Source of the DNA: Nanobdellota archaeon
GTDB lineage: Archaea; Nanobdellota; Nanobdellia; Woesearchaeales; GW2011-AR4
Direction: 5' to 3'
Assembly (NCBI GenBank): GCA_038046385.1
Contig: JBBSWH010000002.1
Span: 1 to 55,875 of the forward strand
Length of the DNA: 55,875 nt
Below the pieces are notes generated by a model that searched no databases, was not told where the DNA came from, and worked only from the letters and a program-made list of their open reading frames with translations. Below are positions 25,474-43,815 of the stretch, in pieces. How positions within the stretch are numbered: the stretch's first letter is position 1; each line of letters starts with the position of its first letter. The position numbers were made by a program, and so were the translations under genes.

Positions 25474-25600
25474 GTGCAATAAATAGGCGAGCTGGTTATG
25501 GTGCCAGCGAGCACTAGAGTTTGTGCGAAGCCATGAAAAATTCCAAAAGAATTTTTGTGGCACCAAAAATGCAAAGCATTTTTTAGTGCACGGAAAAATA
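25474..25600 (+). repeat. GCGAGC-hairpin element copy A with nested palindromic inserts
   Basis: GGCGAGCTGGTTATGGTGCCAGCGAGCACTA..TTTGT..ACGGAAAAATAA; reverse complement of 35.6 and 42.4 kb copies. Confidence 0.85.
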
Positions 25601-25686
25601 ACAAAAATCAATAATAACTCAGATTATTAATATTAATCATCTTCAAATTCAAAAGCTTTAAATAACCAAATCCCAAAAAACAGATT

Positions 25687-26625
25687 ATGGGAATAATAAG
25701 AAAAGATTATGTTCTTGACCGATGGGTATATTATGCGACTGGCCGGAAGAAAAGGCCGCAGGAGTTCAAAAAAGAGCCTCCAAAAACCAGTGTAAAAACA
25801 TGCGTATTCTGCCCAAAAAATGAAAATTTGACCCCGGTAGAAATTGGAAGAATAGAATACAAAAACAGCTGGAAAATGCGCTGGTTTCTAAACAAGTTCG
25901 CTGCAGTTGAGAAAAAAGGGAACCCGAATTTCAAATCAAAAGGATTGCTGAAAGAATCCAACGCTTATGGGATACATGAAATCGTTGTCGAGACGCAGCA
26001 GCACAAGACAGAGCTTTCACAATTACCTGTTGATAACATAGAAGACCTTTTTGAAGTGTTCAAGGTAAGAATAAAGGACTTGAGCAAGCTGAAAGGCATA
26101 AGATATGTTGATGTTTTCAAAAACAGCGGGAAAGATGCAGGAACATCATTGGTTCACAGCCATTCGCAGATTGTCGCCCTTAATAATGTTCCATCATTGG
26201 TCATGCAGGAATGCAAAGCATCTGTAAAAAGCAAAAAATGCCTGTACTGCAGCATAATAAAAAAGGAAGCAAAGTCCAAAAGAAAGATTTTCGAAACAAA
26301 AAATGTTGTTGCATTCGCTCCGTTTGCATCGCGCTTCAACTTTGAAGCGTGGATTTTCCCGAAAAGCCACAAGAGGAATCTTGAAGAGATGGAAGAGTAT
26401 GAAATTCGAGATATGGCAATTGCGATGAAAAAAATACTGTCAAAATTAAAATCAATAAACTCTTCGTACAATTTCTTCCTGCACTATTCTCCTGAAAAAG
26501 AGAATTTGCATTTCCACATCGAGATAACGCCGAGAATGGCAAACTGGGGCGGATTCGAAATATCAACAGACGCAATAATAAATTCCGTTCTTCCGGAAGA
26601 TGCAGCAAAGTTTTACAGAAGCTAA
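25687..26625 (+). CDS. galT: Galactose-1-phosphate uridylyltransferase (GalT/HIT family)
   Basis: CVFCP, GIHEIVVET, AGTSLVHSHSQ, HFHIEITPR, GGFE. Confidence 0.9.
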   Translation: MGIIRKDYVLDRWVYYATGRKKRPQEFKKEPPKTSVKTCVFCPKNENLTPVEIGRIEYKNSWKMRWFLNKFAAVEKKGNPNFKSKGLLKESNAYGIHEIVVETQQHKTELSQLPVDNIEDLFEVFKVRIKDLSKLKGIRYVDVFKNSGKDAGTSLVHSHSQIVALNNVPSLVMQECKASVKSKKCLYCSIIKKEAKSKRKIFETKNVVAFAPFASRFNFEAWIFPKSHKRNLEEMEEYEIRDMAIAMKKILSKLKSINSSYNFFLHYSPEKENLHFHIEITPRMANWGGFEISTDAIINSVLPEDAAKFYRS

Positions 26626-26638
26626 AATTAATAATTAA

Positions 26639-28153
26639 TCAAATTATAAGGCTTTTTTCCATGTCTTTTGGCTTCTTGATATGCAATAAATCAAGCATGG
26701 TTGGCGCAATGTTTGAAAGCATTCCAGACGGTTTTAATTTCACTTTTAATTTGTTTCCTACAAGAATAAAAGGAACTTTATTGGTTGTATGTGCTGTGTT
26801 GGGGCTGCCGTCATCTTCTGTTATTTTCTCGCAGTTTCCATGGTCTGAAGTCACAATCGCAATTCCGTTATTCTGAAGCACTTTCTGCACAATCCTGCCC
26901 ATGCATTCATCGGCAATCTTGCACGCCTTTATTATTGCAGTTTTTACGCCAGTATGCCCGACCATATCGCTGTTTGCAAAATTGCATATAATGACATCAT
27001 ATTTGTTAAGATTTTTGATTACAGCATCAGTTATTTCATAGGCCTTCATTTCAGGCGCATAGTCGTAAGTCGGGACTTTTTTGTTTGACGGCACTAAAAT
27101 CCTGTCTTCTCCTTTGTAAGGCTTTTCGACCAGACCGTTAAAAAAGAAAGTCACATGCGCATATTTCTCTGTTTCCGCCACCCTAAGCTGTTTTAGTTTG
27201 TGCTTGCTTAATATCCTTGGAAAATCTCCGCCCATGTTGATTGGCTTGAAGGCAACTTTTGCGTTAACATCAGTATAATATTCTGTCATGCATACATATG
27301 TTATTTTTTTATTATTCCTTTTGAATCCCTTAAATTTCTCGTCTGTAAAAGCCTTTGTTATCTGCCTTGCCCTGTCCCATCTAAAATTGTAGAATATGAT
27401 TGCATCATTGCTGTTCATGCCATTATAACCGTCAATTGCAACCGGCTTTATGAATTCATCAGTTATTCCCGTTTTATGGGACTCTTTTATTGCCGCAAGC
27501 GGATTATTGGATATTCTGCCTTTGCCGCTGTTCAATAAATCATATGCAAGCTGTGTCCTTTTCCATCGCTTGTCGCGGTCCATTGCATAATACCTTCCGA
27601 TTATTGTAGCGATGTATCCTATCCCTATTTCTTTTATTTCTGTCTGCAGCCTTTTTACAAATCCTTCAGAAGAATTCGGCAGCGTATCTCTGCCGTCTGT
27701 AAAAACATGTATTGCAACCTTGTCTTTTTTCATGCCCATTCGCTTGGCAAACTTCATAAGTGCAAACAAATGCTCCTGATGCGCATGCACTCCCTGATCC
27801 TGAAGAAGCCCCATAAGATGCAGCGTGCTACCGTGTTTCTTGCAGCTGTTTATTGTTTCAAGAAATTCCTTGTTTTTAAAAAAATCACCATCTTTTATCG
27901 AATTGTTAATCCTTACAAGCGATTGGTAAACTACCTTTCCTGCGCCTATGTTCAAATGACCGACTTCGCTTGTGCCCTGATTTCCCTTGGGCAGGCCAAC
28001 ATGCTCCCCTGATGCATGAAGCTGTGTGTGCGGGTATTTTTTCCATAAATTGTCTATATTTATTGTTTTGGCAAGGTAAGGTCCGCTCCTGCTTTTATCA
28101 GAAGTCATTCCCCATCCGTCCAGTATTATAAGAACTAAAGGCTTGCTATGCAT
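26639..28153 (-). CDS. gpmI: 2,3-BPG-independent phosphoglycerate mutase
   Basis: LIILDGWG, SEVGH, DGRD, GRYYAMDRD, ETEKYAHVT, DMVGHTG and SDHGN motifs. Confidence 0.96.
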   Translation of the reverse strand: MHSKPLVLIILDGWGMTSDKSRSGPYLAKTINIDNLWKKYPHTQLHASGEHVGLPKGNQGTSEVGHLNIGAGKVVYQSLVRINNSIKDGDFFKNKEFLETINSCKKHGSTLHLMGLLQDQGVHAHQEHLFALMKFAKRMGMKKDKVAIHVFTDGRDTLPNSSEGFVKRLQTEIKEIGIGYIATIIGRYYAMDRDKRWKRTQLAYDLLNSGKGRISNNPLAAIKESHKTGITDEFIKPVAIDGYNGMNSNDAIIFYNFRWDRARQITKAFTDEKFKGFKRNNKKITYVCMTEYYTDVNAKVAFKPINMGGDFPRILSKHKLKQLRVAETEKYAHVTFFFNGLVEKPYKGEDRILVPSNKKVPTYDYAPEMKAYEITDAVIKNLNKYDVIICNFANSDMVGHTGVKTAIIKACKIADECMGRIVQKVLQNNGIAIVTSDHGNCEKITEDDGSPNTAHTTNKVPFILVGNKLKVKLKPSGMLSNIAPTMLDLLHIKKPKDMEKSLII

Positions 28154-28154
28154 T

Positions 28155-29423
28155 TTAAATTCCAAAATCCGCTTTATTTCCTAATTCTTCTTCTATTCTT
28201 AACAATTGATTGTACTTTGCAATGCGCTCGCTTCTCGCAGGAGCGCCAAACTTGCTCTGGCCAGCTCCAAGCCCGACAACAAGGTCTGCAATGAACGAAT
28301 CTTCTGTCTCCCCGCTCCTGTGAGAAACGACGACATTCCATTTGTTCTTGAATGATAAGTTTGCCGCGTCAATTGATTCTGTTACGGTTCCAATCTGGTT
28401 TACTTTAAGCAATAATGCATTGCATGATTTTTTTGCTGTTGCCATTTGCATTCTTTTCATGTTTGTAACAAGCAGATCATCGCCCACAATCTGTATCTTG
28501 TTTCCAATTGATTTGTTCATCATGCTCCATCCTTCAAAATCGTCCTGAGAAAACCCGTCTTCTATCGAGATTATTGGAAATTTTGCTGAAAGTGATTTGT
28601 AAAAGTCAACAAGCTCGCCTTTGCTGTATGTTTTTCCCATTATTGTGTATTTGTCATTTTTCTCGTCGTAAAACTCAGATGCTGCGCAGTCCAGCGCGAG
28701 CTTTATTTTGCCTTCATAGCCTGCTTCTTTTATCGCACCCACCATGAACTCAAGCCTTTGCTCAACGCTTTCTATTAGCGGCGCAAATCCGCCCTCATCT
28801 CCAAGCAATATTGCCTTTGCACCGTATTTTTTCTTGAGCATTGATTTCAGAACATGATAAGTTTCGGTTCCTGCCCTAAAAGATTCCTTAAAAGTCTTAA
28901 ATCCAGTTGGCATGAGCATGTGTTCCTGTATGTCATTTTCAACACCGGCATGTTTTCCGCTGTTTATCACATTAAGCTGCGGCACAGGCAGTTTCATTTT
29001 TTTAGAATTTGACAGTTTGTGTAAATAAGAATAAAGCGGCATTCCGGAACATGAAGCACCAGCAACGCAGGAAGCCATTGAAACCGCAAGGATTGCGTTT
29101 GCTCCGAGATTTGATTTGTGTTCTGTTCCGTCCAGTTCTAGCATTATCCCGTCTATCTCCTTTTGGTCTGTGCAGTCCATCCCGACAATTTTTTTAGAAA
29201 TAATGTTGTTTGCATTGTTTACAGCTTTAAGAACGCCTTTTCCATCGTATCTTTTTTTGTCGCCGTCCCTTAGCTCAAGCGCCTCATGAATTCCTGTTGA
29301 AGCACCAGAAGGCACTATTGCCCGAAAGCCATTTTTACCAATAAAAACATCTGCTTCCACCGTAGGATTGCCTCTAGAATCAAGAACTTCCCTTGCAGTT
29401 ATCTTCGTTATTTTAGTGTTCAA
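28155..29423 (-). CDS. eno: Enolase
   Basis: DSRGNPTVE, PSGASTG, GDEGGFAP, KVNQIG and SHRSGETED; likely TTG start after GGGTGG. Confidence 0.97.
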   Translation of the reverse strand: MNTKITKITAREVLDSRGNPTVEADVFIGKNGFRAIVPSGASTGIHEALELRDGDKKRYDGKGVLKAVNNANNIISKKIVGMDCTDQKEIDGIMLELDGTEHKSNLGANAILAVSMASCVAGASCSGMPLYSYLHKLSNSKKMKLPVPQLNVINSGKHAGVENDIQEHMLMPTGFKTFKESFRAGTETYHVLKSMLKKKYGAKAILLGDEGGFAPLIESVEQRLEFMVGAIKEAGYEGKIKLALDCAASEFYDEKNDKYTIMGKTYSKGELVDFYKSLSAKFPIISIEDGFSQDDFEGWSMMNKSIGNKIQIVGDDLLVTNMKRMQMATAKKSCNALLLKVNQIGTVTESIDAANLSFKNKWNVVVSHRSGETEDSFIADLVVGLGAGQSKFGAPARSERIAKYNQLLRIEEELGNKADFGI

Positions 29424-29526
29424 AAACCCCACCCTTTTATGAATAAGCACAAAAAAACCATGTATATAAATATTTCGCATGCATCATCAAATAAGCTTTT
29501 ATATTTGCTTGTTAATAAAGCAATAA

Positions 29527-30009
29527 ATGAGGATAACAAGGGATATAAACGGAAAACTGCTTCTGTTAATCATATTCTTCCTTATCTTATTTATTGTATT
29601 CACTGTAAGCTACCAATCCACTGTCAGCAGGCTTGTCAGCAGCAGGGAAAACAGCATTGATGATGTCACGATGATGTCAATACTTGAAAAAATCAACAAG
29701 TCCAATCAGGGAAAGGAATCTGCGCTGATTGACAAAATTGTTCTTGAGGAAAAATACAACCAGGTTCTTGAGGAAAAACAGGCTCTTGAAGAAGAAAAAA
29801 AGAGCCTGCAGGATGAAATTGTAATGTTGAAATCAGAAATTGAATATAATCAGGTAAGAGTTGACGGCCCTCTTGCAGGCTTCAGGAACATACAGGACAA
29901 GAACCAGCAGATACAGGATTTAAAAAATGAGATAGATGTTCTTTGCGCAAAATTAAAAGACAACAATATCCAAAGCAAGGAGTGCATAATAGCAGAGATA
30001 ACAAATTAA
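29527..30009 (+). CDS. Membrane-anchored coiled-coil protein (paralog of 44598..45080)
   Basis: RDIN..LLLLI..F..FTV.YQ N-terminus, then heptad repeats. Confidence 0.75.
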   Translation: MRITRDINGKLLLLIIFFLILFIVFTVSYQSTVSRLVSSRENSIDDVTMMSILEKINKSNQGKESALIDKIVLEEKYNQVLEEKQALEEEKKSLQDEIVMLKSEIEYNQVRVDGPLAGFRNIQDKNQQIQDLKNEIDVLCAKLKDNNIQSKECIIAEITN

Positions 30010-30062
30010 AAGCAAGTATTTCAATAGAAAGGTTTTAATTCTAAAGCGTATTCCAAGGGTAG

Positions 30063-30335
30063 ATGAAATGGGATAATCCTAATCTGGAATCGTTAGTAAT
30101 TGGTTTGATTGACCTAGCTGATTTTCTGAGGCTCTACAGACAAGAAATCCCGCAAATACTGGAATAGCCGATTTGATTGTATCTCACGCAAAATTCTAGA
30201 GGATAAGATGGAATGGGTATCCATATCCTATATAAATCGATTTTACCTTCAGGAGTATCGGGATTTAATAAACAAGGGAAATCTCAAAGAAGCAAAGAAA
30301 CAAGCCTATAATCTGCTGCGCTACATTCGTGATTA
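30063..30335 (+). pseudogene. Possible frameshifted small accessory gene
   Basis: BRE/TATA-like AGAAAGGTTTTAA, then MKWDNPNLESLV.. and, in another frame, ..MEWVSISYINRFYLQEYRDL..IRD*. Confidence 0.35.
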
Positions 30336-31133
30336 ACCTATATAATCAATGTCTTTGCCTAATTTCTTCTGCAGCTTCTTCAGGGCAATTGTCTTCGACA
30401 CTTCGCTGAACTGCTCGGATTTCTTCAGGACTTCATTTTCTATGTCTTTTATTTCCTTGTCGAGCTTGTTTATATCAAGCTTTAGCTTTAAGTGGCTGTT
30501 TAAAACTTTAAGAATTTCTTTTGCGCCTTTTATTCCAAGGTACATTGGATGCCCGTAAGTTTCCGCCAAAAGGGAGACTGCATCTATTTTTCTTCTTGTT
30601 GACAGTCCGACAAGCAGTCCAGATACGCCTATTATCGGGCCAACGACGCCATAAAGCTCGTTGCTCGTCATGTCGCTCTTGTATCTGGATATTACTTCTT
30701 TAGAATTTCCTGTGCAGTATATCTTGGGCTTTTTCGGTATGTCATTCAACCCGATTCCGCCAAGCGTGACAACTTCTTTCCAGTTGAATTTTTCAACTAT
30801 ATCAAGCACTTTTTCGGAGAATTCGTAAGAGCTTATTTCATCAACCGGCTGAACGTCTCCCCCTAAAAGTATAAGGTCGTTCTTGCCATTCATCTGCTTG
30901 TAAAAAACCTCTACAATAGGAAGCTCCACAAGGTTATCTTCATTGACAAAAACAGAATGAGGAAAAGTATAAGATGTGATTTCAAAAATTTTCTTTGCCT
31001 TCAGTTCATCTATGAGAAAGTCAACAGCGAGTTTCCCGACATTCCCTATTCCCGGAAGCCCTTCTATAAAAACCGGCTTTTTCAGCTTTGGCATCTTGCC
31101 AAACTGCTCAATTCTCCAGTAATCGTCCCTCAT
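30333..31133 (-). CDS. PAC2-family proteasome assembly chaperone
   Basis: FIEGLPGIGNVGKLA, GDVQP, VTLGG, GPIIGVSGLL. Confidence 0.92.
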   Translation of the reverse strand: MRDDYWRIEQFGKMPKLKKPVFIEGLPGIGNVGKLAVDFLIDELKAKKIFEITSYTFPHSVFVNEDNLVELPIVEVFYKQMNGKNDLILLGGDVQPVDEISSYEFSEKVLDIVEKFNWKEVVTLGGIGLNDIPKKPKIYCTGNSKEVISRYKSDMTSNELYGVVGPIIGVSGLLVGLSTRRKIDAVSLLAETYGHPMYLGIKGAKEILKVLNSHLKLKLDINKLDKEIKDIENEVLKKSEQFSEVSKTIALKKLQKKLGKDIDYIG

Positions 31134-31303
31134 GCCAAGCCTCTTTTTTCATAATCTTCATGCATCACTTTTCTTCTGTAGGATGCGAACTTGTCCAAAG
31201 GAGAGTATTTCATTGGTTTTGGAGAAAGCGCCTTTGCGCCGCATTTGCAAACGCTGTTCATTGTGTAATTATTGCACAATGTGCATTTCATTATGTGCTT
31301 CAT
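31130..31303 (-). CDS. nop10: H/ACA RNP protein Nop10 (57 aa, not in the ORF track)
   Basis: MKHIMKCTLCNNYTM..CKCG..PKPMKYSPLDKFASYRR; ATGA overlaps on both sides; canonical position after aIF2-alpha. Confidence 0.92.
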   Translation of the reverse strand: MKHIMKCTLCNNYTMNSVCKCGAKALSPKPMKYSPLDKFASYRRKVMHEDYEKRGLA

Positions 31304-32082: not shown

Positions 32083-32084
32083 TT

Positions 32085-32270
32085 TTACTCGAGCACTTCA
32101 AGTATCCTTGCTTTTACCCTGCTCTTTCCGCCTGTAGGCTCTGCAAGTACCTTGTCGCAGACTAAACAGACTACCTTTGAAGCAGTCTTGCCGAATGTTA
32201 TCTGTTCGTTCTTGCATTTAGGGCACCTTATCTTGATAAATTTGCTTGTAGATTCTCTTATTTTTGGCAT
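32085..32270 (-). CDS. rps27e: 30S ribosomal protein S27e
   Basis: SKFIKIRCPKCKNEQ..CLVC..LAEPTGGK. Confidence 0.96.
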   Translation of the reverse strand: MPKIRESTSKFIKIRCPKCKNEQITFGKTASKVVCLVCDKVLAEPTGGKSRVKARILEVLE

Positions 32271-32348
32271 TTTGAAACCCCCTTGTTATTAGCTGGTGTA
32301 ATTTTTATTGATTTATAAAGCTTGTTATTAAGATTAAAAAAGAAAGCC

Positions 32349-32657: not shown

Positions 32658-32807
32658 AGATAAAAGGATAAGTATTTCATTTAAAAAGGTTTCGAAGAAA
32701 CACGATGAACTGAAGATAGATTTACTTGAAAAGTTGGGGGCAGAAATCATAAGATTTATATATTTAAACATATTGCACAGGTTTACACATAATTGGAGGC
32801 AGAGAAC

Positions 32808-33032: not shown

Positions 33033-33034
33033 TC

Positions 33035-33433: not shown

Positions 33434-33467
33434 TTCGCTTTAATTGAAATAGAATAATTAATTATTT

Positions 33468-34097
33468 CTATTCTTCCTTCATCTCTTCTGCCTTGCTTTT
33501 GTTAATCAGGATATCAGCAATTTCAATCGGCAAGTTTGCAATATCTTCCTCTTCAAAAGGGCCGTATTCTTCCAATTCAGTCCCTACGAATTTAGGAACG
33601 TGGCCGGTAAAGCGAATCAATTTAGTATTCTTAACCTCAACCGGCTTAACTTCTTCTTTCTGTTTCTTGTATTCAAACCCCTGCAAAAAGGGAATGCGTT
33701 CATTCAAAACAGCAAGAAGAATCTGCTCCCTGTAAGTATCCAATAAAGCAGTTAACGTGTCAAAAAACACCCTTTCTTCTTTAAGCAGCACAGAAGTGTC
33801 AATCAGATTTGATTGCGTCCTGCTCCTGTCCATTGCCATTGTGATAATCTTCTTTTCTCTCCTGCCATATAATTCCTTGATTATCTTGTAGATGTTATCC
33901 AGCTGTCTTTCTGTCTTCTTTATCTCTTCGTTTGCAAAAGGCGAGTCTGTTTTAGCCTCAAGTATCTTTTTCTTCTCTTTTATGTAAGAAATCGTGTCGT
34001 TAAAGAAGGATGGCTCTAGTTTCTGCAAGTCAGCTCTGTCTTTTTCTCGCTGCAAAAGCTCGAATAAGGTCTCGTATGTAATAACAACTTCCTGCAT
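33468..34097 (-). CDS. GINS complex subunit (Gins15/51-type)
   Basis: LQKLEPSFF, RREKKII, EER..F, VPKFVG..YGPF..DIANLP..ADILI; adjacent to the L44e cluster. Confidence 0.85.
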   Translation of the reverse strand: MQEVVITYETLFELLQREKDRADLQKLEPSFFNDTISYIKEKKKILEAKTDSPFANEEIKKTERQLDNIYKIIKELYGRREKKIITMAMDRSRTQSNLIDTSVLLKEERVFFDTLTALLDTYREQILLAVLNERIPFLQGFEYKKQKEEVKPVEVKNTKLIRFTGHVPKFVGTELEEYGPFEEEDIANLPIEIADILINKSKAEEMKEE

Positions 34098-34164: not shown

Positions 34165-34250
34165 GCGACGTGGCGTGCAGCGAGCCGGGGGCAGTCCCTT
34201 ACGGGGTGGCGAGCAGGGCAAAGTCGCAACTTTGACCGTCGCACCGCCAT
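34165..34250. repeat. GC-rich branched hairpin in divergent intergenic region
   Basis: TGGCG..CGCCA outer stem, GCGAGCC..GGCGAGC module, CAAAGT-CGCA-ACTTTG. Confidence 0.55.
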
Positions 34251-34331
34251 AGTTAGCATTTCATTTTTTAAATGAAATTCTTCAAACTATTCTTAGATAG
34301 CTTTTTAAAAGAAAATTCCATACTAGGAAGA

Positions 34332-35558
34332 ATGGCAGAGCTTGTTTTCAAAGACTTAAGTTTTGAGAAGGAAAAAGACAGAGTAAAGGTAAATTTCCTG
34401 AAAATGTTCTATTTCCACATAGATGAAGATGTATTAAAAAAGATAGGAAAATACGAAATAAGCAGAAATTCAATAACTTTCAACAACGTTTCAGAGTCAA
34501 GCGCAAGAAAAAAGTTTGATTTCATACTGAACAATGCCTTCAAGAGCTTAAAGAACAAACTAAGCAACAAAACAACGTATTACATTCACCAGTCATCCGG
34601 CATTCCTTTGATGGGCACAAATTACTTTGGAGTGATAGATAGGGGAACAAACATAATTGAAGTCAAGCCATTAACAAGCTGCAACATAAGCTGCATTTTC
34701 TGCTCAGTGGATGAAGGCCCAAAATCAAGAAGAAAAGTTGATTTTGTCGTCGAGAAAGACTATCTTGTGAATGAATTCAGGAAGCTTGTGGAGTTCAAGA
34801 AAAGCGACAAGATAGACGCGCACATAAACGCACAAGGTGAACCAACATTGTACGCTGAAATGATTGACCTTGTAAGGGACATAATGTCCATCAAAGGAGT
34901 AAAAACGAGTTCAATTGACACAAATGGATTACTATTGACAAAGCAGTATATTGATGAGCTTGCAGAAGCAGGACTTACAAGAATTAACTTATCGTTGCAC
35001 GCAATGGATCCTGCCAAGGCAACAGAGCTTGCAGGCCACCCTTACAATCTAGCCAAGGTCTTGGACATCGCAAGATACATTCCAACAACCAAGATGGATC
35101 TTATCATAGTGCCGGTATGGATGCCCTGCTATAACGATGAAGAGCTTCCTAAGCTGGCTAAATTCGCAAGAGAGATAGGTGCAGGCAAGCATTGCCCTCC
35201 AATAGGCATACAAAACATGCTTAACTATAAATTCGGCCGCAATCCGATAAAACAAGTCGATATGGACCAGTTTTACGCCAAAATGAGGGAATTGGAAGCA
35301 AAGTACGGCATTCCGCTGATAGTTGACAAGTATTCTTTTGAGATAGAAGACCTTCCAGAGCTGCCAAAGCCTTTCAAGAAAGGCAAGGTAGTGGAAGCAG
35401 AGATTATGCTTCCTGGCAGGCTGGGGAATGAAAAGCTGGCTGTAGCAAAGGACAGGATTATATCAATACCAAGTTGTGACAAGGAAATCGGCTCAACAGT
35501 GAAAATAAGGATAAGAAGGACTAAACATAACATATTCATGGGAGAATTGTTGGGTTAA
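34332..35558 (+). CDS. Radical SAM protein with C-terminal TRAM-like domain
   Basis: CNISCIFC, QGEP, DTNG; C-terminal VKIRIRRTKHNIF. Confidence 0.9.
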   Translation: MAELVFKDLSFEKEKDRVKVNFLKMFYFHIDEDVLKKIGKYEISRNSITFNNVSESSARKKFDFILNNAFKSLKNKLSNKTTYYIHQSSGIPLMGTNYFGVIDRGTNIIEVKPLTSCNISCIFCSVDEGPKSRRKVDFVVEKDYLVNEFRKLVEFKKSDKIDAHINAQGEPTLYAEMIDLVRDIMSIKGVKTSSIDTNGLLLTKQYIDELAEAGLTRINLSLHAMDPAKATELAGHPYNLAKVLDIARYIPTTKMDLIIVPVWMPCYNDEELPKLAKFAREIGAGKHCPPIGIQNMLNYKFGRNPIKQVDMDQFYAKMRELEAKYGIPLIVDKYSFEIEDLPELPKPFKKGKVVEAEIMLPGRLGNEKLAVAKDRIISIPSCDKEIGSTVKIRIRRTKHNIFMGELLG

Positions 35559-35603
35559 GAATTCTATAAGTTAGTTGTATTTATCTAAACTCTGTTAAGA
35601 AAG

Positions 35604-35662
35604 ATTTCAGTCCCTTCGGGACAAAGTTTAGTGCTCGCTGGCACCATAACCAGCTCGCCAAT
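35604..35662 (-). repeat. GCGAGC-hairpin element copy B
   Basis: GTCCCTTCGGGACAAAGTTTAGTGCTCGCTGGCACCATAACCAGCTCGCCAAT. Confidence 0.85.
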
Positions 35663-35706
35663 TCATTATATTCTAACTTAAAGGTTAGACTGCTTTCTAG
35701 AGTCAG

Positions 35707-35753: not shown

Positions 35754-38357
35754 TTAAGCAGTTACTACTGGTGCCACTACCTTAGGGGCTGGTGCAGCTA
35801 CTGTCAATTGGTTGTTAACTTTCTTGACTTCTACACTTGTTCCCTTTAGCTGTGACTTGTAGTCCTTGTAGTTTGCTACAACTGCTGCTGCGTTTCTTGT
35901 ATCAACTGCATTGTAACCTGCTACCAACATAGCCACGTTGCCGTTTGAGTGCTCGTACAACTTTAGCATACCTACGCCTGGTTCGAATCCAGCTTCACAA
36001 TTAGCTGGGTTGCCCATAACGGTTGCTGCTGCTGCGTTTGCACATGGTCCACCTACCAATATTGAGTTAACTGCGTTCACATCAGATACTTCTGATGCAA
36101 GCTTAGCTGCTCCAACATCGATTCTCTGAACCATTACAGCGTCTGTTGATGATGCTGCTGTCTCAGTGAATGAGACGCCCTGTCCGGTTACATACACCAA
36201 AGGTGTTCTCTGAACACTTGGGTAAGTTACGAACAATTCTTCTGGGCTGCTTGTTGGGCTTGTCAACTGCACAAATGCACCATATGCTGTGTAAGCATAT
36301 GTGTTGTCATCATCATCCTGTGGAGACAGGAAGTTTAGGTTGTTTGCTGATTCAGCAATGCTTAATTCTGAATCAGATCCTGCAGTGATTACAAACGATA
36401 ATCCGTGTGCAACCAAGTTATCTGTGGCATCAGCATTTGGTGTTGAGATGTTAACAAAAATCCCCGGTGTGGATGTCTTGTTAATTGCTATCTTTGCACC
36501 CTCTTTGGTGTTTATGGTTGTTACCAAAGAATTGCCTCCAAATGTCTCTCCTCCAGACAGGACAGTTCCTGAACCATCTGTGTCGACCATAATGTTGAAG
36601 TCATCAACTTTTGCGTTTGACAGGTTGTACACCCTAAAGGTTCCGCCACCAAGCTTTAGCTGAGCAACTTCGACAGGAGCCGAAATGGAAATATTTGTTC
36701 CATCTGGACCTACAACACCTGCAGTTGTTACTGCAGTTCCTGTGCTCAAACTTTTTTCAATGGTCTCTCCTGTTCCGAGGTTCTCGAACTTTATAACTGG
36801 ACTTTCGTCAGTCAATGCGTCTGATGATTTGTAACGCAAGGCATATGACTGCCTCTCACCATCATCGTCAGAAGAATAGTCTGTTACGATGAAATAGTCA
36901 TTAGTGTCTATTGACGAGTTCTCGCTTACATGAAGGTTGTCATCGCTGTCTCCCAATGTCACAGCACTTGCTGTTCCGTGTACAAAAGGCACTTTTACAT
37001 TGTTGCCTGAGCCATCAGTGAATACCAAATTGTAGTCATCGTCGCCTGCTGATCTTATTTCAACCTTTGAGGTTGACGCTGAAGACAAACCTTTGTATTC
37101 AACATCCCAGTTCCTTGTGAACAAGGCATCTGCTTCTGAGCCTGTTGCTGCAATAGCATCACTCAACTTCTTGCCAGCTGCTACGTAAAAGTCATCATCA
37201 GCTGAGATGTTGACAGCTATCTTGTCAATCTTGAAAGTTGTGTCATCATCTGTACCTTCAACAAACACATTAGCATTGTCGATTGTTTCGTCGTCTATTT
37301 TTAATTCATGGCTGCTTGCTGTATCACTTATGTTTGTGTCTCTCAGTTCAACCTTCTGTGCGCCTATAAAGAATGTTGCACTGTGGATACCGCCAGCATA
37401 GTCCTGATACAAAATATCAGTTACACCAACTGTGGTGCCATCTGCTAGCTTGTCCGTGTCTCCGTCCTTTAGCTTTCTTGTTAACTGGCCGTTTACACTG
37501 AACTGAGCCTCGTCAGTATCAACATAGTTTAATGATACTTCGTAAGCTTTTCCGCTTATTTCGTAGTTCTTTGATGCCTGCTCAACTAGAGTGTCTTTCT
37601 TTGCTCCGCCCATCAATGTAAGAACAACATTCTCACCGCCGGTACCTGTTCTCCTTGCAGTTACAATGTCGTATTGCTTGCCTAGCATTACCAAGGGCAT
37701 ATCCTCAAAGTCTGTAAGGTACAACCCCGTTGTTGATGCTGAACCTGTTGAATCGTCAACGTCGCTCTCTGGCTGCGTTGTGAATTCAAGCTCGTATCTT
37801 GCAATCTGCTGTCCACGAGGGAAATACAAAAAGTCAGCTGTTGTGTCTGTGTCTGTTTCTTCTGTGTAAATCACATAGCCGGTTGTTGTATCTTCAAAGT
37901 ATAGTCTCTGTTCATAATCTGCTGTTCCTTTTGTGTTGGAAATTTTTCCATCTGCAAGTAATCCTGGAAGCTCTGCGCTGTCTATGGAACTTGTTATTGT
38001 TGCAATTGCTTCTGAGCTTCCTGCTAAAAATCCTGCGTCTAGGTTTTCTGTCAACTCTAGAATTTTTGTTGTTGTTCCTACTTTCCAAGCATCTCCTTCA
38101 GCTGAAAGATCTGATGCGCCGCCTGTTGCGACTTTCTTGGTAGCTGCGAACTGCAGGCTTGAGATTATGTCGGATATTCCGATTACGTCTTCTGCTGCTG
38201 CTTTGTTACCAACGATTAGAACGCCGTTGAATTTTCCATCCTTTATGAATGGTGCTGGGTAATTTCCCAAATCTGCTGCTGCCATTACTGAAGAACCAAG
38301 CATTATAGCTCCTGTTCCTAGGGCAATCATTCTCTTTATGGTTTTTTGAAATCTCAT
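35754..38357 (-). CDS. Major S-layer protein (867 aa)
   Basis: Signal peptide, DLGNYPAPF..VG..AAAEDVIG N-terminus, ILVGGPCAN..LVAGY..DTRNAA C-terminus; acidic, T/D-rich; GGAGGTG RBS. Confidence 0.9.
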   Translation of the reverse strand: MRFQKTIKRMIALGTGAIMLGSSVMAAADLGNYPAPFIKDGKFNGVLIVGNKAAAEDVIGISDIISSLQFAATKKVATGGASDLSAEGDAWKVGTTTKILELTENLDAGFLAGSSEAIATITSSIDSAELPGLLADGKISNTKGTADYEQRLYFEDTTTGYVIYTEETDTDTTADFLYFPRGQQIARYELEFTTQPESDVDDSTGSASTTGLYLTDFEDMPLVMLGKQYDIVTARRTGTGGENVVLTLMGGAKKDTLVEQASKNYEISGKAYEVSLNYVDTDEAQFSVNGQLTRKLKDGDTDKLADGTTVGVTDILYQDYAGGIHSATFFIGAQKVELRDTNISDTASSHELKIDDETIDNANVFVEGTDDDTTFKIDKIAVNISADDDFYVAAGKKLSDAIAATGSEADALFTRNWDVEYKGLSSASTSKVEIRSAGDDDYNLVFTDGSGNNVKVPFVHGTASAVTLGDSDDNLHVSENSSIDTNDYFIVTDYSSDDDGERQSYALRYKSSDALTDESPVIKFENLGTGETIEKSLSTGTAVTTAGVVGPDGTNISISAPVEVAQLKLGGGTFRVYNLSNAKVDDFNIMVDTDGSGTVLSGGETFGGNSLVTTINTKEGAKIAINKTSTPGIFVNISTPNADATDNLVAHGLSFVITAGSDSELSIAESANNLNFLSPQDDDDNTYAYTAYGAFVQLTSPTSSPEELFVTYPSVQRTPLVYVTGQGVSFTETAASSTDAVMVQRIDVGAAKLASEVSDVNAVNSILVGGPCANAAAATVMGNPANCEAGFEPGVGMLKLYEHSNGNVAMLVAGYNAVDTRNAAAVVANYKDYKSQLKGTSVEVKKVNNQLTVAAPAPKVVAPVVTA

Positions 38358-38775
38358 CTTCTAAACACCTCCAAGTGTTTTGTTTTTTATCGTCTTCATG
38401 TATAATATCTGAATATTATACGCTCGTAGTAATACCTCATATAAAGTATCCTACAACACAAAAGTATCATAATCCATATTTAAAGCTTTTGGTATCTTTG
38501 CTATTAGAATATATATTTTGTAGTATAGATATCTTGTCATTTTACGTATGAAAACAATTGAAAAGTTACGTTAATTTATTAATTTTCCTATAGTTCTAGA
38601 AGATAGTTCTAGTAGTTGAAAGCATAATTATCTATTCTGTTTAAATTAGTTTAAAAAATGAAACTAAGGCGCCTTTGCCCTATTATATATAGGCTGGTCA
38701 AAATTGTGCCGAGAACCGTATCCAGTCAGGGTTGGTAAGCCAAACTTTTAAATAACACATGGAATTCTTGGGTTT

Positions 38776-40008
38776 ATGGCAAAACAAACAATATCTTTGT
38801 GCATGATAGTAAAAGACGAAGAAAACTATCTTGAGCAGTGCTTAAGCTCTGCAAAAGGGCTTGCTGATGAAATCATAATTGTCGACACAGGAAGCAAAGA
38901 CAAGACAAAAGAGATTGCAAAGAAGTTCAATGCAAAGGTGTTTGATTTCAAATGGAATGATGATTTCTCTGCTGCAAGGAACGAAAGCCTGAAGCATGCA
39001 GCAAAAGACTGGATTCTTGTGCTTGATGCTGACGAAAGTTTATCCAAAGAAAGTGTTGCTGCAATAAAGAAAATTGTTGAAAACGAAGAGAATGATGCTT
39101 ATTCTTTTGTGCAGAAAAATTACAATGATAGTTCATCTGTTGCAGGATTTGTTGCAGAAGAGCACAAAAACATAGAAAAAACGTATGCAGGGTGGTATGG
39201 TTCCCTGATTACAAGAATGTTCAGGAACAAAAAAGACTACAAATTCAAAGGGATGGTGCATGAAACAGTTGATTCATCTGTTGAATCAAAGCAGGGAAAA
39301 ATAGTTCCGGCAGGAATTGCAATAAACCACTATGGAAACTCTGATTCTGCTGCTGTAAAAAAGAAGATGGCATCGTATCTTGAACTTTGCAAAAAGAAAG
39401 CTGAAAAGATAAAAGATGCAAATTCATATTATGAACTTGGCGTACTTTACAAAAAAAATGATAAATCGGATGAAGCTATTGCTGCATTAAGCAAAGCAAT
39501 AAAAGCTGACAAGTCGCATTATATGGCCCATTATGAGTTAGGTATTATTTATGAGAAACAAAAGGAGCATGATAAAGCAATTGAAAGCTATAAAGGGTCA
39601 TTAAAGATAAAAGATAATAGCCCTGCTTTGGAAGCTCTTGGTGCGTGTTATCTTAAACAAGGAAATCTTAAAGACGCGTACTCTAACCTTATCAAGGCAT
39701 TGGAATTAAATCCCAATAAGCACACCATATATAATAATCTTGGCGCAGTCTTTGAAAAAGGCGGAAATTACGATGCTGCAATCAAGATATTGCTTGTTGG
39801 AATCAAAGTCAATCCAAATAATAAGATAGGCTACTACAACCTTGCAGTTGCTTTGGAGAAGAAAAAGGATTTTGCAAATGCAATCAAAAGCTATGAAAAA
39901 GCTCTTGAATTGGGCCATTCCAAGAAGGATGAAATAGAAAAAAGAATCAACGGCCTTCAGAAAGTTCTGTTAGACAGCCCAAGGTATAAGTTTAAGGTTG
40001 GCGGATAG
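38776..40008 (+). CDS. GT2 glycosyltransferase with TPR repeats
   Basis: ISLCMIVKDEE, VDTGS, DFSAARN, LDADE, VHE; tandem TPRs. Confidence 0.92.
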   Translation: MAKQTISLCMIVKDEENYLEQCLSSAKGLADEIIIVDTGSKDKTKEIAKKFNAKVFDFKWNDDFSAARNESLKHAAKDWILVLDADESLSKESVAAIKKIVENEENDAYSFVQKNYNDSSSVAGFVAEEHKNIEKTYAGWYGSLITRMFRNKKDYKFKGMVHETVDSSVESKQGKIVPAGIAINHYGNSDSAAVKKKMASYLELCKKKAEKIKDANSYYELGVLYKKNDKSDEAIAALSKAIKADKSHYMAHYELGIIYEKQKEHDKAIESYKGSLKIKDNSPALEALGACYLKQGNLKDAYSNLIKALELNPNKHTIYNNLGAVFEKGGNYDAAIKILLVGIKVNPNNKIGYYNLAVALEKKKDFANAIKSYEKALELGHSKKDEIEKRINGLQKVLLDSPRYKFKVGG

Positions 40009-40071
40009 TCATTACTTCTTAGTGATTACAGAATAGAAAGGTTTAAATATAGGATATTTGCAACTTTAGTT

Positions 40072-41418
40072 ATGAATAGAAGAAAATTTTTAGGCATATT
40101 GGCAGGGGCAGCAGCCGGCGCTCCATTTTTAGCAGATTCTGCTGTTTCAAATTTTCCTCAGCTTCAGGGATCCAAAAACAAATTGTTGCCTTTTTCAAAT
40201 AGGCAGCATCAATATGACCAGCCAACTGCTGCGGAAGCTGCAGACTTACAGCCAATTGAAAGACCGCAAATACACAATCAAAGAGACACTCTTGAAGACA
40301 AAATTGCAGAACTAATAATAACAGATAGGGGAAGTATTGGCAGTTTTTTTCCGGGAGGCATAATTTTAACTAAACAGCAAACTAGAGAGGGGCACTTGTT
40401 TGGAAAGTACCACAGCTACGATCCTGAAAGAGCGCAATCCACAGTGGAAGATGTGCTAAAAAGTGCAGCACAAATGAATAAACGGGTTCTGATTTATGAC
40501 GAAGGTGAAGGCGGTTTTGTCACGCGTATTGGAACATTGCCTGCAGCTGGGGATATTGGCAACTATTATGTCCATAACAGAATTAGAGGGACCATAACGG
40601 GAAGAGTGACTCCTTCATCAGACAAAAACACAAGAAAAAATCAGATAGTTGCATTGTTTGAAAATTATGCTAAAGAGCTGCATAACCGCGGTGTCAATGC
40701 TGTCTTGGGTCCGGTGTTGGATGTCATAATCAGTGGTAAGAATGATAATTTGATTGAAAGAGATGGAAGGTCTTTTGGCCCGAGCCACGCGGCAACAGTG
40801 GATCTTGCTCAGATGTACATAAACGCAATGCACAGATATGGAATTAGAGTAACCGGAAAGCACTTTTTAGGAGCAGGCATTCCAAAAAATGGAGATGTTC
40901 ATGAGGAGTTGGTTACACAAACCAGAAGGATACGGCCAAGGCTAAATGCAGGCAGTGTATACAGAAGGCTAAGGGAAGGTCTTGATGGAGTCATGGCCAC
41001 CCACATAAGAAACCCGGCAGACAACAATAAGCCGTATATTCTTTCAGAAGTCGCTTTGGATTACCTTACTCAGACAAAGTATCAGGATGATGGTAGAACT
41101 TACAGGGGCATAGATTTTAACGGGTTGGTCATCACAGATGATATCTTAATGAAAGGAGTGTTGGAGTATGTTAAAAGGAATAAATTAACCAAAAGGCAGC
41201 AAAAGCTTGTCGCGGGCTGCAGCAATTTGGAGTCTAAGACTGCAGTATTGGCTATTGATGCCGGCTGCAATGCAGTTATAGCTCTTCAAACAGACGTAGA
41301 CTCAATTGTTCGCGGAATAAGCTATGCATACAAAACAGGTGATTCTAAATTTAAAAACAGAGTAGATAACTCGTTTAGGAAATACCAGGAATTTGTTCAA
41401 AAATTTAATCTAAATTAA
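40072..41418 (+). CDS. Tat-exported GH3 beta-N-acetylhexosaminidase-like protein
   Basis: MNRRKFL twin-arginine signal; DEGEGG, GPVLDV, RSFG, KHFLGAG..DVH, ITDD. Confidence 0.8.
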   Translation: MNRRKFLGILAGAAAGAPFLADSAVSNFPQLQGSKNKLLPFSNRQHQYDQPTAAEAADLQPIERPQIHNQRDTLEDKIAELIITDRGSIGSFFPGGIILTKQQTREGHLFGKYHSYDPERAQSTVEDVLKSAAQMNKRVLIYDEGEGGFVTRIGTLPAAGDIGNYYVHNRIRGTITGRVTPSSDKNTRKNQIVALFENYAKELHNRGVNAVLGPVLDVIISGKNDNLIERDGRSFGPSHAATVDLAQMYINAMHRYGIRVTGKHFLGAGIPKNGDVHEELVTQTRRIRPRLNAGSVYRRLREGLDGVMATHIRNPADNNKPYILSEVALDYLTQTKYQDDGRTYRGIDFNGLVITDDILMKGVLEYVKRNKLTKRQQKLVAGCSNLESKTAVLAIDAGCNAVIALQTDVDSIVRGISYAYKTGDSKFKNRVDNSFRKYQEFVQKFNLN

Positions 41419-41425
41419 TTAAGTT

Positions 41426-42277
41426 TTATCTCCCCAATATTTTATAAAAAGTGTCAAATATCGGCGTGTCTGTTATCGCTAAACTGTAAGAAATCCCGAG
41501 CTTGCTGCACACATCTTCTATCTTTGCGCAGTGGTCGTCAAGCTTCTGCTGATATTCCATTCTTAATCTAGGGCTTATGAACGTGCGAAGCATTCCTTTT
41601 GTTTCAGAATCAACCAGCTTAAAGTCTCCCTCAAACTTCAGCTCTTTTTCTGTCCTGTCAAGAACTTGAACAATTTTTATTTCGTGATTGCCAAGCATGT
41701 AAAGTGATTCTCTTAACTCTTCTATGTTGACAAGAAAATCCGAAGCTATGACAAGCATAGACTTTGTGCCTATCACCTTTTTGTATTGTCTTATTGTATC
41801 AAGCAGCTTTGAAGTTCCCTTTGGCTTTATCCCATTCAAATGCTGAATCATTGCTGCAAGGTGCCCCATCCCCCTTTTTGGCTGGAACACGTTAAGGTCT
41901 TCTGCAAAAGTTGAAAATTGGAACTTCTCGTTGTCTCGCATTGCAAGATAGCCGAAACCGACGCCAATCATTGCGGCGTAATCAAATTTCGATACTGGCT
42001 TGCCGAAATCCATGGAAGCACTCTTGTCTATTAGTATGTGCACTGTCAGGTTTTTCTCTTCTTCCTGCACCTTGATGAAATGATTGTCTGTTCTTGCATA
42101 GACTTTCCAGTCTATCATCCTTATGTCATCGCCCGGCGCATAGATTCTGTAATCCTTAAACGTCATCCCGTGCCCGCCAGCAAGAGACTTTTTTGATCCT
42201 GTTAAGTTAGAAGTTACCCTTTTGTTCACAACAAGATTGAATCTTGTCAACTGGTCAAGGAAAGATGTTGTTATCAT
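41426..42277 (-). CDS. DUF58 (vWA-like) protein
   Basis: FKDYRIYAPGDDIRMIDWKVYART, DKSASM, SDF. Confidence 0.93.
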   Translation of the reverse strand: MITTSFLDQLTRFNLVVNKRVTSNLTGSKKSLAGGHGMTFKDYRIYAPGDDIRMIDWKVYARTDNHFIKVQEEEKNLTVHILIDKSASMDFGKPVSKFDYAAMIGVGFGYLAMRDNEKFQFSTFAEDLNVFQPKRGMGHLAAMIQHLNGIKPKGTSKLLDTIRQYKKVIGTKSMLVIASDFLVNIEELRESLYMLGNHEIKIVQVLDRTEKELKFEGDFKLVDSETKGMLRTFISPRLRMEYQQKLDDHCAKIEDVCSKLGISYSLAITDTPIFDTFYKILGR

Positions 42278-42375
42278 TTTAGTTATTGATTATTTGATGT
42301 TTTTAATTTATAATTTTTTTAATGTGTTTTAGTTTAATGTTATCCGTTAATGCATTCGTTATTGTTTTTGTGGTT

Positions 42376-42436
42376 TTATTTTTCCGTCCTTCGGACAAAC
42401 GTTACAGCTCGCTGGCACCACAACCAGCTCGCCAAT
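42376..42436 (-). repeat. GCGAGC-hairpin element copy C
   Basis: TTATTTTTCCGTCCTTCGGACAAAC..GCTCGCTGGCACCACAACCAGCTCGCCAAT. Confidence 0.85.
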
Positions 42437-42447
42437 ATATTTTTACA

Positions 42448-42625
42448 GTGCCCTCGAAGAGGGTACCTTTTTTGATGAAACTTTTTTCGAAATGTCGAAA
42501 ATCATTGATTTTCGAGCACCCAGCAAATCTTCGATTTGCGTGGAAAAGTTTCCCAGTGCAAATTGGACAAAGTCCAATTGCACACTTGAGCTCTGCTCAA
42601 GTTGTGTCAACGGACGGAACCGTTG
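42448..42625. repeat. Dense array of six or more short palindromes
   Basis: CCCTCGAAGAGGG; CGAAAATC-ATT-GATTTTCG; GCAAATC-TTC-GATTTGC; AATTGGAC-AAA-GTCCAATT; ACTTGAGC-TCT-GCTCAAGT; CAACGG..CCGTTG. Confidence 0.8.
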
Positions 42626-42626
42626 T

Positions 42627-43562
42627 TTACTTCACCCGGTCTAAAACCGCCTTTATCGCGTCTTCAACAGTCATTCCTTTTCTTTCAGCTTCAAAGTTCA
42701 AAATGACACGGTGCCTCAAGACAGGGTATGCAAGCACATTAATGTCGTCATTGCTCACGTGGTTCCTGCCCTGTATCAAAGCCCTTGCCTTGGAAGCAAG
42801 TGTCAGCGATATTGATGCCCTTGGCGACGCTCCGTACTGGAAGATTTCCTTGTTTGACCTTGTAGCGGCGATTATCTTGACAATTCTCTGTTTTATGTCA
42901 TTCGCAATCGGAACCTGCCTTGTCAATCCCTGCAGAGTCAGCAGATGATTCTTGTTCAGCATGACCTTCAGCTTGTTTTCCCTGATTTCTGCAGCATACC
43001 TGTCCACTATCTCGATTTCCTGTTCAACTGTCGGATACGAAACTTTTATCTTTAGCAAAAACCTGTCTGCCTGCGCTTCCGGCAAAGGATATGTTCCTTC
43101 CTGTTCTATCGGGTTTTGCGTCGCTAAGACAAAAAACGGAAGATCCAACTTGTAAGTGTTGTTGCCGACAGTAACTTGCTTTTCCTGCATCGCCTCAAGA
43201 AGTGCTGATTGTGTTTTTGGTGTTGCCCTGTTGATTTCATCTGCAAGCACGATGTTCGCGAATATCGGCCCTGGCTGGAACTTAAACTGCCTTTTTCCTG
43301 AAACTTCCTCAATTATGTAAGTTCCGGTTATATCAGACGGCATCAAATCCGGTGTATTCTGTATTCTGCTGAACTTCAGGTCCATCAGCTGCGCAAGCGT
43401 CTTCACCGTAAGTGTTTTCGCCAATCCGGGATATCCTTCCAGAAGCGCGTTTCCGTCGCATAATATTGCAACAAGAATCTGCTCAACAGTGTCTTCTTGC
43501 CCGACTATGACCTTGCCCAGTTCCTTTTGCAATTCGTCAAAAACCTGCTTGTAATTTTTCAT
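42627..43562 (-). CDS. moxR: MoxR-family AAA+ ATPase
   Basis: EGYPGLAKT, TPDLMPSDITG, LADEINRA, ATQNPIEQEGTYPLPEAQ.DRF and GASPR. Confidence 0.96.
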   Translation of the reverse strand: MKNYKQVFDELQKELGKVIVGQEDTVEQILVAILCDGNALLEGYPGLAKTLTVKTLAQLMDLKFSRIQNTPDLMPSDITGTYIIEEVSGKRQFKFQPGPIFANIVLADEINRATPKTQSALLEAMQEKQVTVGNNTYKLDLPFFVLATQNPIEQEGTYPLPEAQADRFLLKIKVSYPTVEQEIEIVDRYAAEIRENKLKVMLNKNHLLTLQGLTRQVPIANDIKQRIVKIIAATRSNKEIFQYGASPRASISLTLASKARALIQGRNHVSNDDINVLAYPVLRHRVILNFEAERKGMTVEDAIKAVLDRVK

Positions 43563-43747
43563 TTATTGTCCACCTCTTTGGTTTAATTTTAAATTTTATT
43601 ATTTTTTAATGATTATAATTTTAATATTATTGATTTGAATTTTTATTTATTTGTTTTTTAGGGAATTATTATTTTAAATTTGATTTTTAGTTATTGAGTT
43701 TATTTTTTAATGTGATTCGTTAATGATTTTTGTTTGTTGAGTTGTGT

Positions 43748-43815
43748 TTTATTTTTCCGTTCGCTTCGCTCACAATAGTTACGCTCGCCCGCATTGCTCG
43801 CCTATTTATTGTACC
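43748..43815 (-). repeat. GCGAGC-hairpin element copy D (diverged)
   Basis: TTATTTTTCCGT-TCGCTTCGCTC-ACAA..GCTCGCCCGCATTGCTCGCCTATTTATTG. Confidence 0.7.

Follow-up and report, generated by a model that had tools for sequence, protein, structure and literature searches.

Dispersed two-hairpin repeats with tandem G.A pairs at gene boundaries in a genus of Nanobdellota archaea

A 55,875-nt stretch of DNA from a Nanobdellota archaeon (GenBank assembly GCA_038046385.1, contig JBBSWH010000002.1; the whole stretch is called the window) carries four copies, A to D, of a short element built around the motif GCGAGC, and the question raised by this locus is what such an element is and how it comes to lie between the genes. 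The source genome (G000; 1.28 Mb in 19 contigs, 38% GC, 85% complete; window contig, C2) was compared with its congeners (labelled G0xx). Its genes for TBP and L39e bear out an archaeal origin. The original prediction had placed four modular copies in the window, and all four were found there: the pattern GGCGAGC-N(5-20)-GCGAGC matched at 25486-25512 on the plus strand and at 35633-35659, 42407-42433 and 43783-43802 on the minus strand, compared with 0.02 matches expected, and 0 of 100 shuffles gave four. The predicted layout was present in all four copies, with an A-rich tail in A, C and D and not in B. A 27-nt core is identical in A and B and off by one base in C; the loop of D is short (AATGCGG). 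From 11 uniform copies (other-locus and window copies) a covariance model was made (75 positions, 15 pairs), which found exactly four matches in C2. With about even confidence, we regard the element as an invasive repeat similar to repetitive extragenic palindromes (REPs) and transposable elements of the miniature inverted-repeat type (MITEs), spread by some mover and co-transcribed as an untranslated region (UTR) or as intercistronic RNA.

The unit is a core of 65-115 nt, one strand of which folds into two hairpins, P1 and P2. A 12-14 nt A/T-rich tag (consensus T-A-T/C-A-A-T-R-W-A-T-W-G) is followed by P1, a 7-8 nt linker, P2 (TTGT-stem-GAA-stem-ACGG) and AAAAATAAAA, and the 5' boundary is sharp, 8-17 nt ahead of P1. 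P1 is closed by GCGAG/CGAGC with tandem G.A pairs, and its apical loop, which contains AUG, is conserved. The loop of P2 is C-GAA-G, GGA(TTG)AAA comes after P2, and two U.G pairs at the foot of P2 are kept in most copies. Base pairing has been kept through compensatory changes. In a model-based alignment of the copies of the source genome, 84.3% of the cells were paired compared to 73.8% in shuffled alignments and 19-46% with slid partners (the two G.A positions are counted as unpaired in all these percentages), and 9 of the 15 pairs change on both sides, a number reached by 0 of 500 shuffles. For 45 copies from relatives, the corresponding values were 83.2% and 69.9%, with 10 of 15 pairs changing on both sides and again 0 of 500 shuffles reaching it. 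The G.A/A.G itself is present in 44-45 of these 45 copies. In two copies of the source genome it is replaced by C-G and G-C pairs (GCGCCC...GGGCGC); what is conserved is therefore the helix. The inner segment of P1 ranges from 6 to more than 100 nt and is fully compensated between copies, as with the stems GGCAAAATTT/AAATTTTGCC, GGCGTAAATT/AATTTACGCC and GGCTTTTTTT/AAAAAAAGCC of one genome; in G045, fully compensated stems surround a constant AATGGCAGA loop. P2 stems differ from copy to copy. The apical loop of P1 is of a type, (A/U)AUGGCAGA, that is conserved genus-wide.

The P1 loop reads UUAUGGUG or AAUGCGG in the source genome. Most P1 loops contain AUG, usually AUGG (UUAUGGUG, AAUGCGG, AAUGGCAGA); loops without this pattern are CACUGA/CGUUGA of the short type and a few GUAGGGUG loops. 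A small open reading frame (ORF) starting at the loop AUG was dropped, as the frame, judged by eye, is not kept between variants. A closing helix (P0, TTCAAT/ATTGAA) around both hairpins was also rejected, because TTGAAT and TTCAAT are equally frequent as the 5' motif, which makes the P0 motifs direct repeats and not complementary.

The strand specificity and the modular, non-coding character that had been proposed were borne out. Of 107 copies, the sense strand was more stable than the antisense strand in 104 with RNA parameters and in 102 with DNA parameters. The predicted pairs in these copies comprised 1074 G-C, 480 A-U and 225 G.U, and 249 of 264 symmetric internal mismatches were G.A/A.G compared with 3 of 264 that were A.C. 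With G.U common, A.C nearly absent and a conserved U.G at the foot of P2, the pairing rules lean towards RNA over single-stranded DNA (ssDNA). Folding energies did not separate RNA from ssDNA, either in the 107 copies or in the z-scores of copies A to D, which were -4.3, -1.9, -2.8 and -0.8 for RNA and -4.3, -1.7, -2.3 and +0.7 for DNA. The antisense strand of copy C had z-scores of -2.0 (RNA) and -2.5 (DNA).

The family proved to be multi-copy and dispersed, as anticipated. The exact pattern found 32 copies in the assembly of the source genome compared with one for a reversed control, and the covariance model gave 42 matches at E<=1; 10 of the 42 have altered P1 stems and were missed by the exact pattern. 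In the genus, 35 of 43 genomes contained 1-49 matches at E<=0.01 and 8 contained zero. In a sample of 151 genomes of the order, matches were found only in the source genome and in one sister genus (three matches, E approximately 3e-4 to 1e-3). The family is thus restricted to one genus, apart from the weak matches in the sister genus. Copies follow a house style: the nearest neighbour of a copy was in the same genome for 52 of 89 copies, compared with 19.4 expected (39 of 42 in the source genome, 11 of 15 in G045 and 2 of 10 in G021). A head-to-head doublet is present in the source genome at C3:20715-20852, and inverted partners lie upstream of several copies in relatives. These findings show that the family has multiplied or been homogenised within genomes.

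Moreover, the element lies at gene boundaries where sister species have an empty site. The order DUF7502-MoxR-DUF58 (window 44616 down to 41426) is conserved within the genus. The gap before MoxR is 265 nt in the source genome, where it contains copy D, and 0-18 nt in 3 of 24 relatives; in several it is tail-like and has no core. The gap before DUF58 is 349 nt in the source genome (copy C) and 0-25 nt in 4 of 25 relatives, and 10 of the 25 have a recognisable family member there (six confirmed by the model and four by eye). Stems differ between these orthologous copies and yet remain paired. At the junction of the transketolase halves tktN and tktC, inspected in 13 relatives, the genes are 0-4 nt apart or overlap in five, and in the source genome the core begins directly after the native stop codon. 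G043 has only a tail at this junction, G006 a 5'-truncated element and G021, G046 and G008 a degenerate form. In G007 the junction contains an unrelated repeat, found as well in the DUF58 gap of G050, a close relative, and the clade G050/G007/G051 (support 100/99) has zero copies of the two-hairpin family. Thus, some species have nothing at these permissive junctions, which different repeats have colonised in others. The repeat in G050 (DUF58 gap, locus L069) and G007 (transketolase junction, locus L166) has the form CAGGGAGGGAA...TTGCCCTCCACCCACCC.

Being dispersed, strand-specific and accompanied by empty orthologous sites (at the DUF58, MoxR and tktN/tktC junctions in some relatives), the element supports the REP/MITE-like behaviour put forward in the original prediction. 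That prediction had held that positions fixed across distant relatives, with no empty sites, would speak against it. Some pairings of element and gene do recur across species, and empty sites exist as well. In contigs from four DNA runs, no joint cleanly separating presence from absence was seen at the four copies; these contigs break at the repeats. The species tree from the MoxR and DUF58 proteins was star-like and uninformative (3 changes of the presence label compared with 3.5 in shuffles). The MoxR-type AAA orthologues at loci L079 (G020), L090 (G021) and L091 (G053) are split after approximately residue 160 by an insert of 1.5-2 kb, which could be an intein or a mobile element.

All 42 copies in the source genome lie between called ORFs, one of them overlapping a probably spurious ORF of 107 codons. 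Their orientation is sense to both neighbours in 20, antisense to both in 10, and in divergent and convergent gaps in 8 and 4, respectively; 28 of the 42 are sense to the downstream gene (p ~0.04, two-sided, normal approximation). A same-strand gene precedes 24 of them, and 14 of these 24 begin between -10 and +12 nt from its stop codon. The element is thus placed directly after stop codons, even within conserved gene pairs. A run of five T is an archaeal termination signal. No such run occurs between the stop codon and the end of the hairpin in 18 of the 24 copies, so that transcription probably continues into the hairpins. The neighbours are common housekeeping genes that often form functional pairs, such as tktN/tktC, pyrD/pyrK-like, proA/proB-like, dxs/ispG, ispE/ispH, ABC/ABC and MoxR/DUF58. 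The parts of the four window copies are as follows.

25473-25548, plus strand: copy A, model match of 66.5 bits on C2; the whole copy is 25473..25602
25473-25486 (5' tag), 25487-25512 (P1), 25513-25519 (linker) and 25520-25531 (5' part of P2), plus strand: parts of copy A
25532-25589, plus strand: nested two-hairpin insert of 58 nt in the 3' arm of P2 of copy A
25590-25602, plus strand: 3' end of P2 of copy A and GGAAAAATAAC
25603..25686, plus strand: A-rich, G-poor tail of copy A, reaching the ATG of gene 25687-26625 (GalT/HIT-like)
35596..35672, minus strand: copy B, a core without a tail, model match of 69.9 bits
35672-35659 (tag), 35658-35633 (P1), 35632-35626 (linker) and 35625-35608 (P2), minus strand: parts of copy B
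42372..42446, minus strand: copy C, model match of 88.6 bits
42446-42433 (tag), 42432-42407 (P1), 42406-42400 (linker), 42399-42384 (P2) and 42385-42372 (GGAAAAATAAAACC), minus strand: parts of copy C
42278..42371, minus strand: tail of copy C, reaching the ATG (42277) of the DUF58 gene 41426-42277
43745..43815, minus strand: copy D, short-loop type, model match of 26.9 bits
43815-43802 (tag), 43801-43783 (P1), 43782-43776 (linker) and 43775-43757 (P2), minus strand: parts of copy D
43563..43744, minus strand: tail of copy D, reaching the MoxR-type AAA gene 42627-43562, whose ATG (43562) follows a Shine-Dalgarno-like GAGGTGG

Copy A is long because of the 58-nt insert inside its P2. This insert (loops CAAAA and AAA) is 97% identical in a copy at C6:54366-54435, and a partial third copy of it lies at C6:110579-110617. 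Copy B lies between the convergent genes 34272-35558 (plus strand, radical SAM) and 35754-38357 (minus strand). In copy D, P2 contains an inner tandem G.A of its own (GTGAGC..GCGAAC). The tag ACAATA of copy D and of other short-loop copies can pair with TATTGT just 5' of P2; this pairing, which encloses P1 and competes with P2, is the minimum-energy fold of copy D and may be due to chance or represent an alternative conformation. Two further features of the window were observed. Approximately 100 nt at 34165-34260 (plus strand), between genes 33468-34097 (minus strand) and 34272-35558 (plus strand), are GC-rich against the 38% GC of the genome and contain GCGAGC...GCGAGC and long complementary arms, with the look of a structured RNA or regulatory hairpin; no Rfam match was obtained there at the gathering score. 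Upstream of copy C, 42448-42626 contains a second, unrelated repeat family of TTTCGA-rich hairpins. Parts of it match many congener loci at 84-95% identity and one locus of the source genome (C11:106071-106152) at 95%, and at this window site 117 nt are swapped for 16 other letters in a variant contig.

The tail consists of 53% A, 26% T, 14% C and 7.6% G and shows a periodicity of 13 nt (CATTAAC...), and many tails in the source genome stay G-poor up to the ATG. The idea that the tail belongs to the element alone was rejected: of the 227 G-poor stretches of at least 70 nt, 201 are elsewhere, and tail-only forms occur at orthologous sites. As G-poor stretches without a core are common in the source genome, the discrete unit is the hairpin core. 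The post-P2 motif (GGATTGAAAA, then A/T-rich sequence) is the element's own; GGATTGAAAA as a genus-wide general TFB-recognition element (BRE) was rejected, as 236 genes lacking the element show no enrichment of it between -45 and -35. Promoters in the source genome normally have their TATA box (TTTAAATA) between -30 and -23 relative to the ATG; most mRNAs should then be leaderless, and a P2 end at approximately -40 would therefore abut the BRE/TATA. The tail of copy A contains TTTAAATA approximately 31 nt upstream of its ATG (25687). In the tails of the source genome, the position of the TATA-like TTTAAAAT varies from -45 to -21, and the 17 element-bearing genes of relatives are A-rich and not T-rich at -30; therefore, a promoter and an unstructured leader without a Shine-Dalgarno (SD) sequence are both possible. 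Of the 39 copies of relatives with an ORF downstream, 18 have the end of P2 at 35-50 nt ahead of the ATG of a long ORF (4 of the 18 are orthologous DUF58 copies). Further copies in G021 had P2 ending 36-39 nt before the ATG in three of seven, and none of 13 further copies in G045 fell within the 35-50 nt range, several of them having an extra P2-like hairpin downstream of the core.

If the element is an invasive repeat, a copy in sense orientation would be read through from the upstream gene, and its hairpins would form in RNA. P1 and P2 would then act as a 3'-UTR or intercistronic structure that may cap or stabilise the upstream message, and the G-poor, A-rich stretch after the hairpins would leave the next start codon unstructured or supply a promoter. 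T-runs of copies in the antisense direction would serve as archaeal terminators, and this would account for the mild orientation bias. The copying agent could be an enzyme that recognises the conserved P1 hairpin, by transposition, or gene conversion among copies might play this part. Several observations weigh against the invasive repeat. Recent bursts are not shown, because the copies of the source genome are 70-86% alike outside P1, and the identity of P1 in most long-type copies points to selection or conversion over neutral decay. No mover was found in the source genome at its 85% completeness. Terminal inverted repeats are absent, and flank similarity gave no sign of a target duplication specific to each copy (7.36 within compared with 7.25 between copies; 372 of 2000 permutations as high), these being the two marks of MITEs. 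The orientation bias is modest, with 28 of 42 copies sense to the downstream gene and 10 antisense to both neighbours. The spacing from P2 to ATG in relatives would suit a functional promoter or leader module better than insertion at random. Finally, 10 ortholog groups have the element in at least two genomes, compared with approximately 2-3 expected by chance from a rough estimate; the recurring pairings include a PUA-domain protein (three genomes), L39e (two), an L24e-like protein (two), an ABC ATPase (two) and DUF58 (seven, with biased sampling).

The main rival draws on the spacing of the element to start codons and on its recurring gene partners, and we hold it only tentatively: that the element is a non-mobile gene-boundary control module maintained by the host, in which a dedicated factor binds the P1 loop and the tandem-G.A stem in RNA or in an extruded DNA strand. 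Such a module would be either promoter-proximal, with a BRE/TATA-like GGATTGAAAA-AATAAAAT, or a structured 5' leader followed by an unstructured stretch for ribosome landing, and would lie at a fixed distance from start codons. The further G021 copies fit this spacing, but the distance to the ATG ranges from 34 to 340 nt in the source genome, where 14 of the 42 copies have no same-strand downstream gene. It is also favoured by GGATTGAA, which is specific to the element and not a general promoter feature of genes without it; however, the element-bearing genes lack the genome-wide T-rich TATA half at -30 (a small sample, n=17). Occurrence beside the same genes in different species, stems that differ between orthologous copies and stay paired, a P1 loop conserved genus-wide and a nearly invariant tandem G.A would all be expected of a host-kept module. 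On the other hand, 8 of the 43 genomes manage without the element, including the clade that has another repeat at these junctions, copy B is flanked by convergent genes, no function is common to the adjacent genes, and the within-genome house styles need conversion or re-insertion. It is also conceivable, though we think it unlikely, that the family represents an archaeal gene-boundary RNA module of a new kind, one that the host keeps and a dedicated hairpin-binding protein reads. In such a module, the tandem-G.A stem would present the AUGGCAGA-type loop and the GAA-loop hairpin would stand 35-44 nt before start codons, setting the fate of the upstream message and starting the next SD-less gene in a lineage whose mRNAs are mostly leaderless, with a house style co-evolving with the protein in each species.

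That the element is an ssDNA substrate moved by a Y1 transposase of the HUH (histidine-hydrophobic-histidine) type, related to IS200 or to REP-associated tyrosine transposases (RAYTs), with its hairpins nicked beside a WTWG tag, is quite improbable. Its hairpins are strand-specific, a 4-nt ATAG/ATTG tag directly 5' of P1 recalls the GTAG of REPs, head-to-head dimers occur, and GCGAAGC-type loops and C-GA-G tandem mismatches are very stable in DNA. Y1_Tnp is found in 23 of the 43 genus genomes. However, the HUH/RAYT mechanism, which the original prediction had suggested, failed each test that was run. The sole Y1 match in the assembly of the source genome (C10:41826-42305, IS200-like, 159 aa) is flanked by an unrelated GTAGCAC...GTGCTAC hairpin, and at four Y1 loci in relatives no element was nearby (best model match, E 0.41). 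Across the 43 genomes, the presence of Y1 does not track copy number: G001 (27-32 copies) and G021 (45-49) are rich in copies and have no Y1 gene, and G020 has three Y1 genes and 0-2 copies. Moreover, 12.6% of the predicted pairs would be G.T in DNA. Domain searches of the source genome found no TnpB, no DDE_Tnp_1 and no rve, and three tyrosine recombinases. It is very improbable indeed that each copy is a free-standing small RNA gene with its TATA-like 5' tag (TATAATAAATAG / TTGAATAAATAG) as its own promoter, which the copies antisense to both neighbours (10 of 42) would need for expression, since with TATA 23-30 nt before starts, as in the source genome, a tag-set start would fall inside P1 (18 to more than 100 nt) and cut a helix whose arms covary, and no conserved terminator follows P2.

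The original prediction did not recognise the element as a described RNA, and no known family matched it: with Rfam 15, the window gave tRNA-Gly only, and matches in 15 small loci scanned at E<=1 showed no overlap with the element. A TnpB omega-RNA or a palindrome-associated transposable element (PATE) was rejected, as no PF07282 or PF01385 match was found in the source genome (85% complete) and the Y1 flanks are unrelated. A mimic of a CRISPR repeat (a hairpin, then GGATTGAAA) was rejected as well; Cas6_C is present in 3 of the 43 genus genomes and not in the source genome, and P2 stems vary between copies, which is not the pattern of a Cas6 substrate. An Rfam tRNA match of 148 nt (L096:538-685, corresponding to C1 ~60069-60216; whole model, 43.2 bits) points to a tRNA gene with an intron near the copy at C1:59832-59925, and a weaker tRNA-like match lies at L097:514-583.

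Among known systems, REPs, with the related bacterial interspersed mosaic elements (BIMEs) and REPINs, are compared first. In the part of a survey of bacterial REPs consulted here, these repeats lie mostly downstream of ORFs, contain G.T pairs, form head-to-head dimers, vary in abundance between strains and are thought to act as RNA hairpins once transcribed, and the hosts listed in that part are bacterial phyla only (PMC3733652). The archaeal element, too, has hairpins that are short, imperfect and specific to one strand, and its copy number is high (42 between genes in 1.28 Mb). On the points covered by that part of the survey, it agrees with REPs in lying just downstream of ORFs and inside operons, in its G.T(U) pairs, in a 4-nt tag beside the stem, in head-to-head dimers and in an abundance that varies strongly between related genomes. 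It differs in being archaeal (DPANN), in having two unlike hairpins with conserved junctions and an invariant tandem G.A closing stem, in a tag (ATAG, ATTG or TATG) without the leading G of GTAG (CGTC is the other REP tag) and in that no RAYT association was found at the Y1 gene of the source genome and the four Y1 loci of relatives. Literature searches found no description of such a repeat family in DPANN archaea; REP-type structured repeats are known as a bacterial feature.

MITEs that contain or influence promoters and RNA hairpins, for example those of the Correia/NEMIS type, are small non-autonomous gene-boundary inserts that are co-transcribed and can alter the expression of the next gene. 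The element shares their size and their place at gene boundaries, but neither terminal inverted repeats nor target duplications were detected, and no DDE transposase was found in the source genome. PATEs of haloarchaea are derived from IS200/IS605, and their ends match a resident IS200/IS605 element. They resemble the present element in being archaeal, non-coding, hairpin-bearing and free of inverted terminal repeats; unlike them, its ends are unrelated to those of the Y1 gene of the source genome, and TnpB was not found. The K-turn or K-loop bound by L7Ae also has tandem G.A flanked by Watson-Crick pairs in an archaeal hairpin. In contrast, the element has no 3-nt bulge but a symmetric 2x2 G.A/A.G internal loop with C-G and G-C flanks and helices on both sides, and a kink geometry is therefore not expected. 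Integron attC sites are strand-specific hairpins after ORFs, conserved in structure and variable in sequence, and their folded single strand is recognised by a tyrosine recombinase. The element is similar in its structure-conserved, strand-specific hairpins after ORFs, and the source genome has three tyrosine recombinases, which may or may not be of the integron type; no RYYYAAC/GTTRRRY core sites or cassette array occur in the element sequences read, and its neighbours are housekeeping genes in conserved order.

The finding concerns a genus of archaea with small genomes that nevertheless hold tens of copies per genome. The inserts lie between genes that overlap in sister species, for example the transketolase halves, and the expression of the downstream gene must have been rewired there. 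Approximately 450 natural variants share one fold, in which the tandem G.A is invariant and the loop conserved, and provide a clear handle for finding the protein that binds or moves it, and the element is a marker for strain-level genome dynamics in uncultured groundwater archaea.

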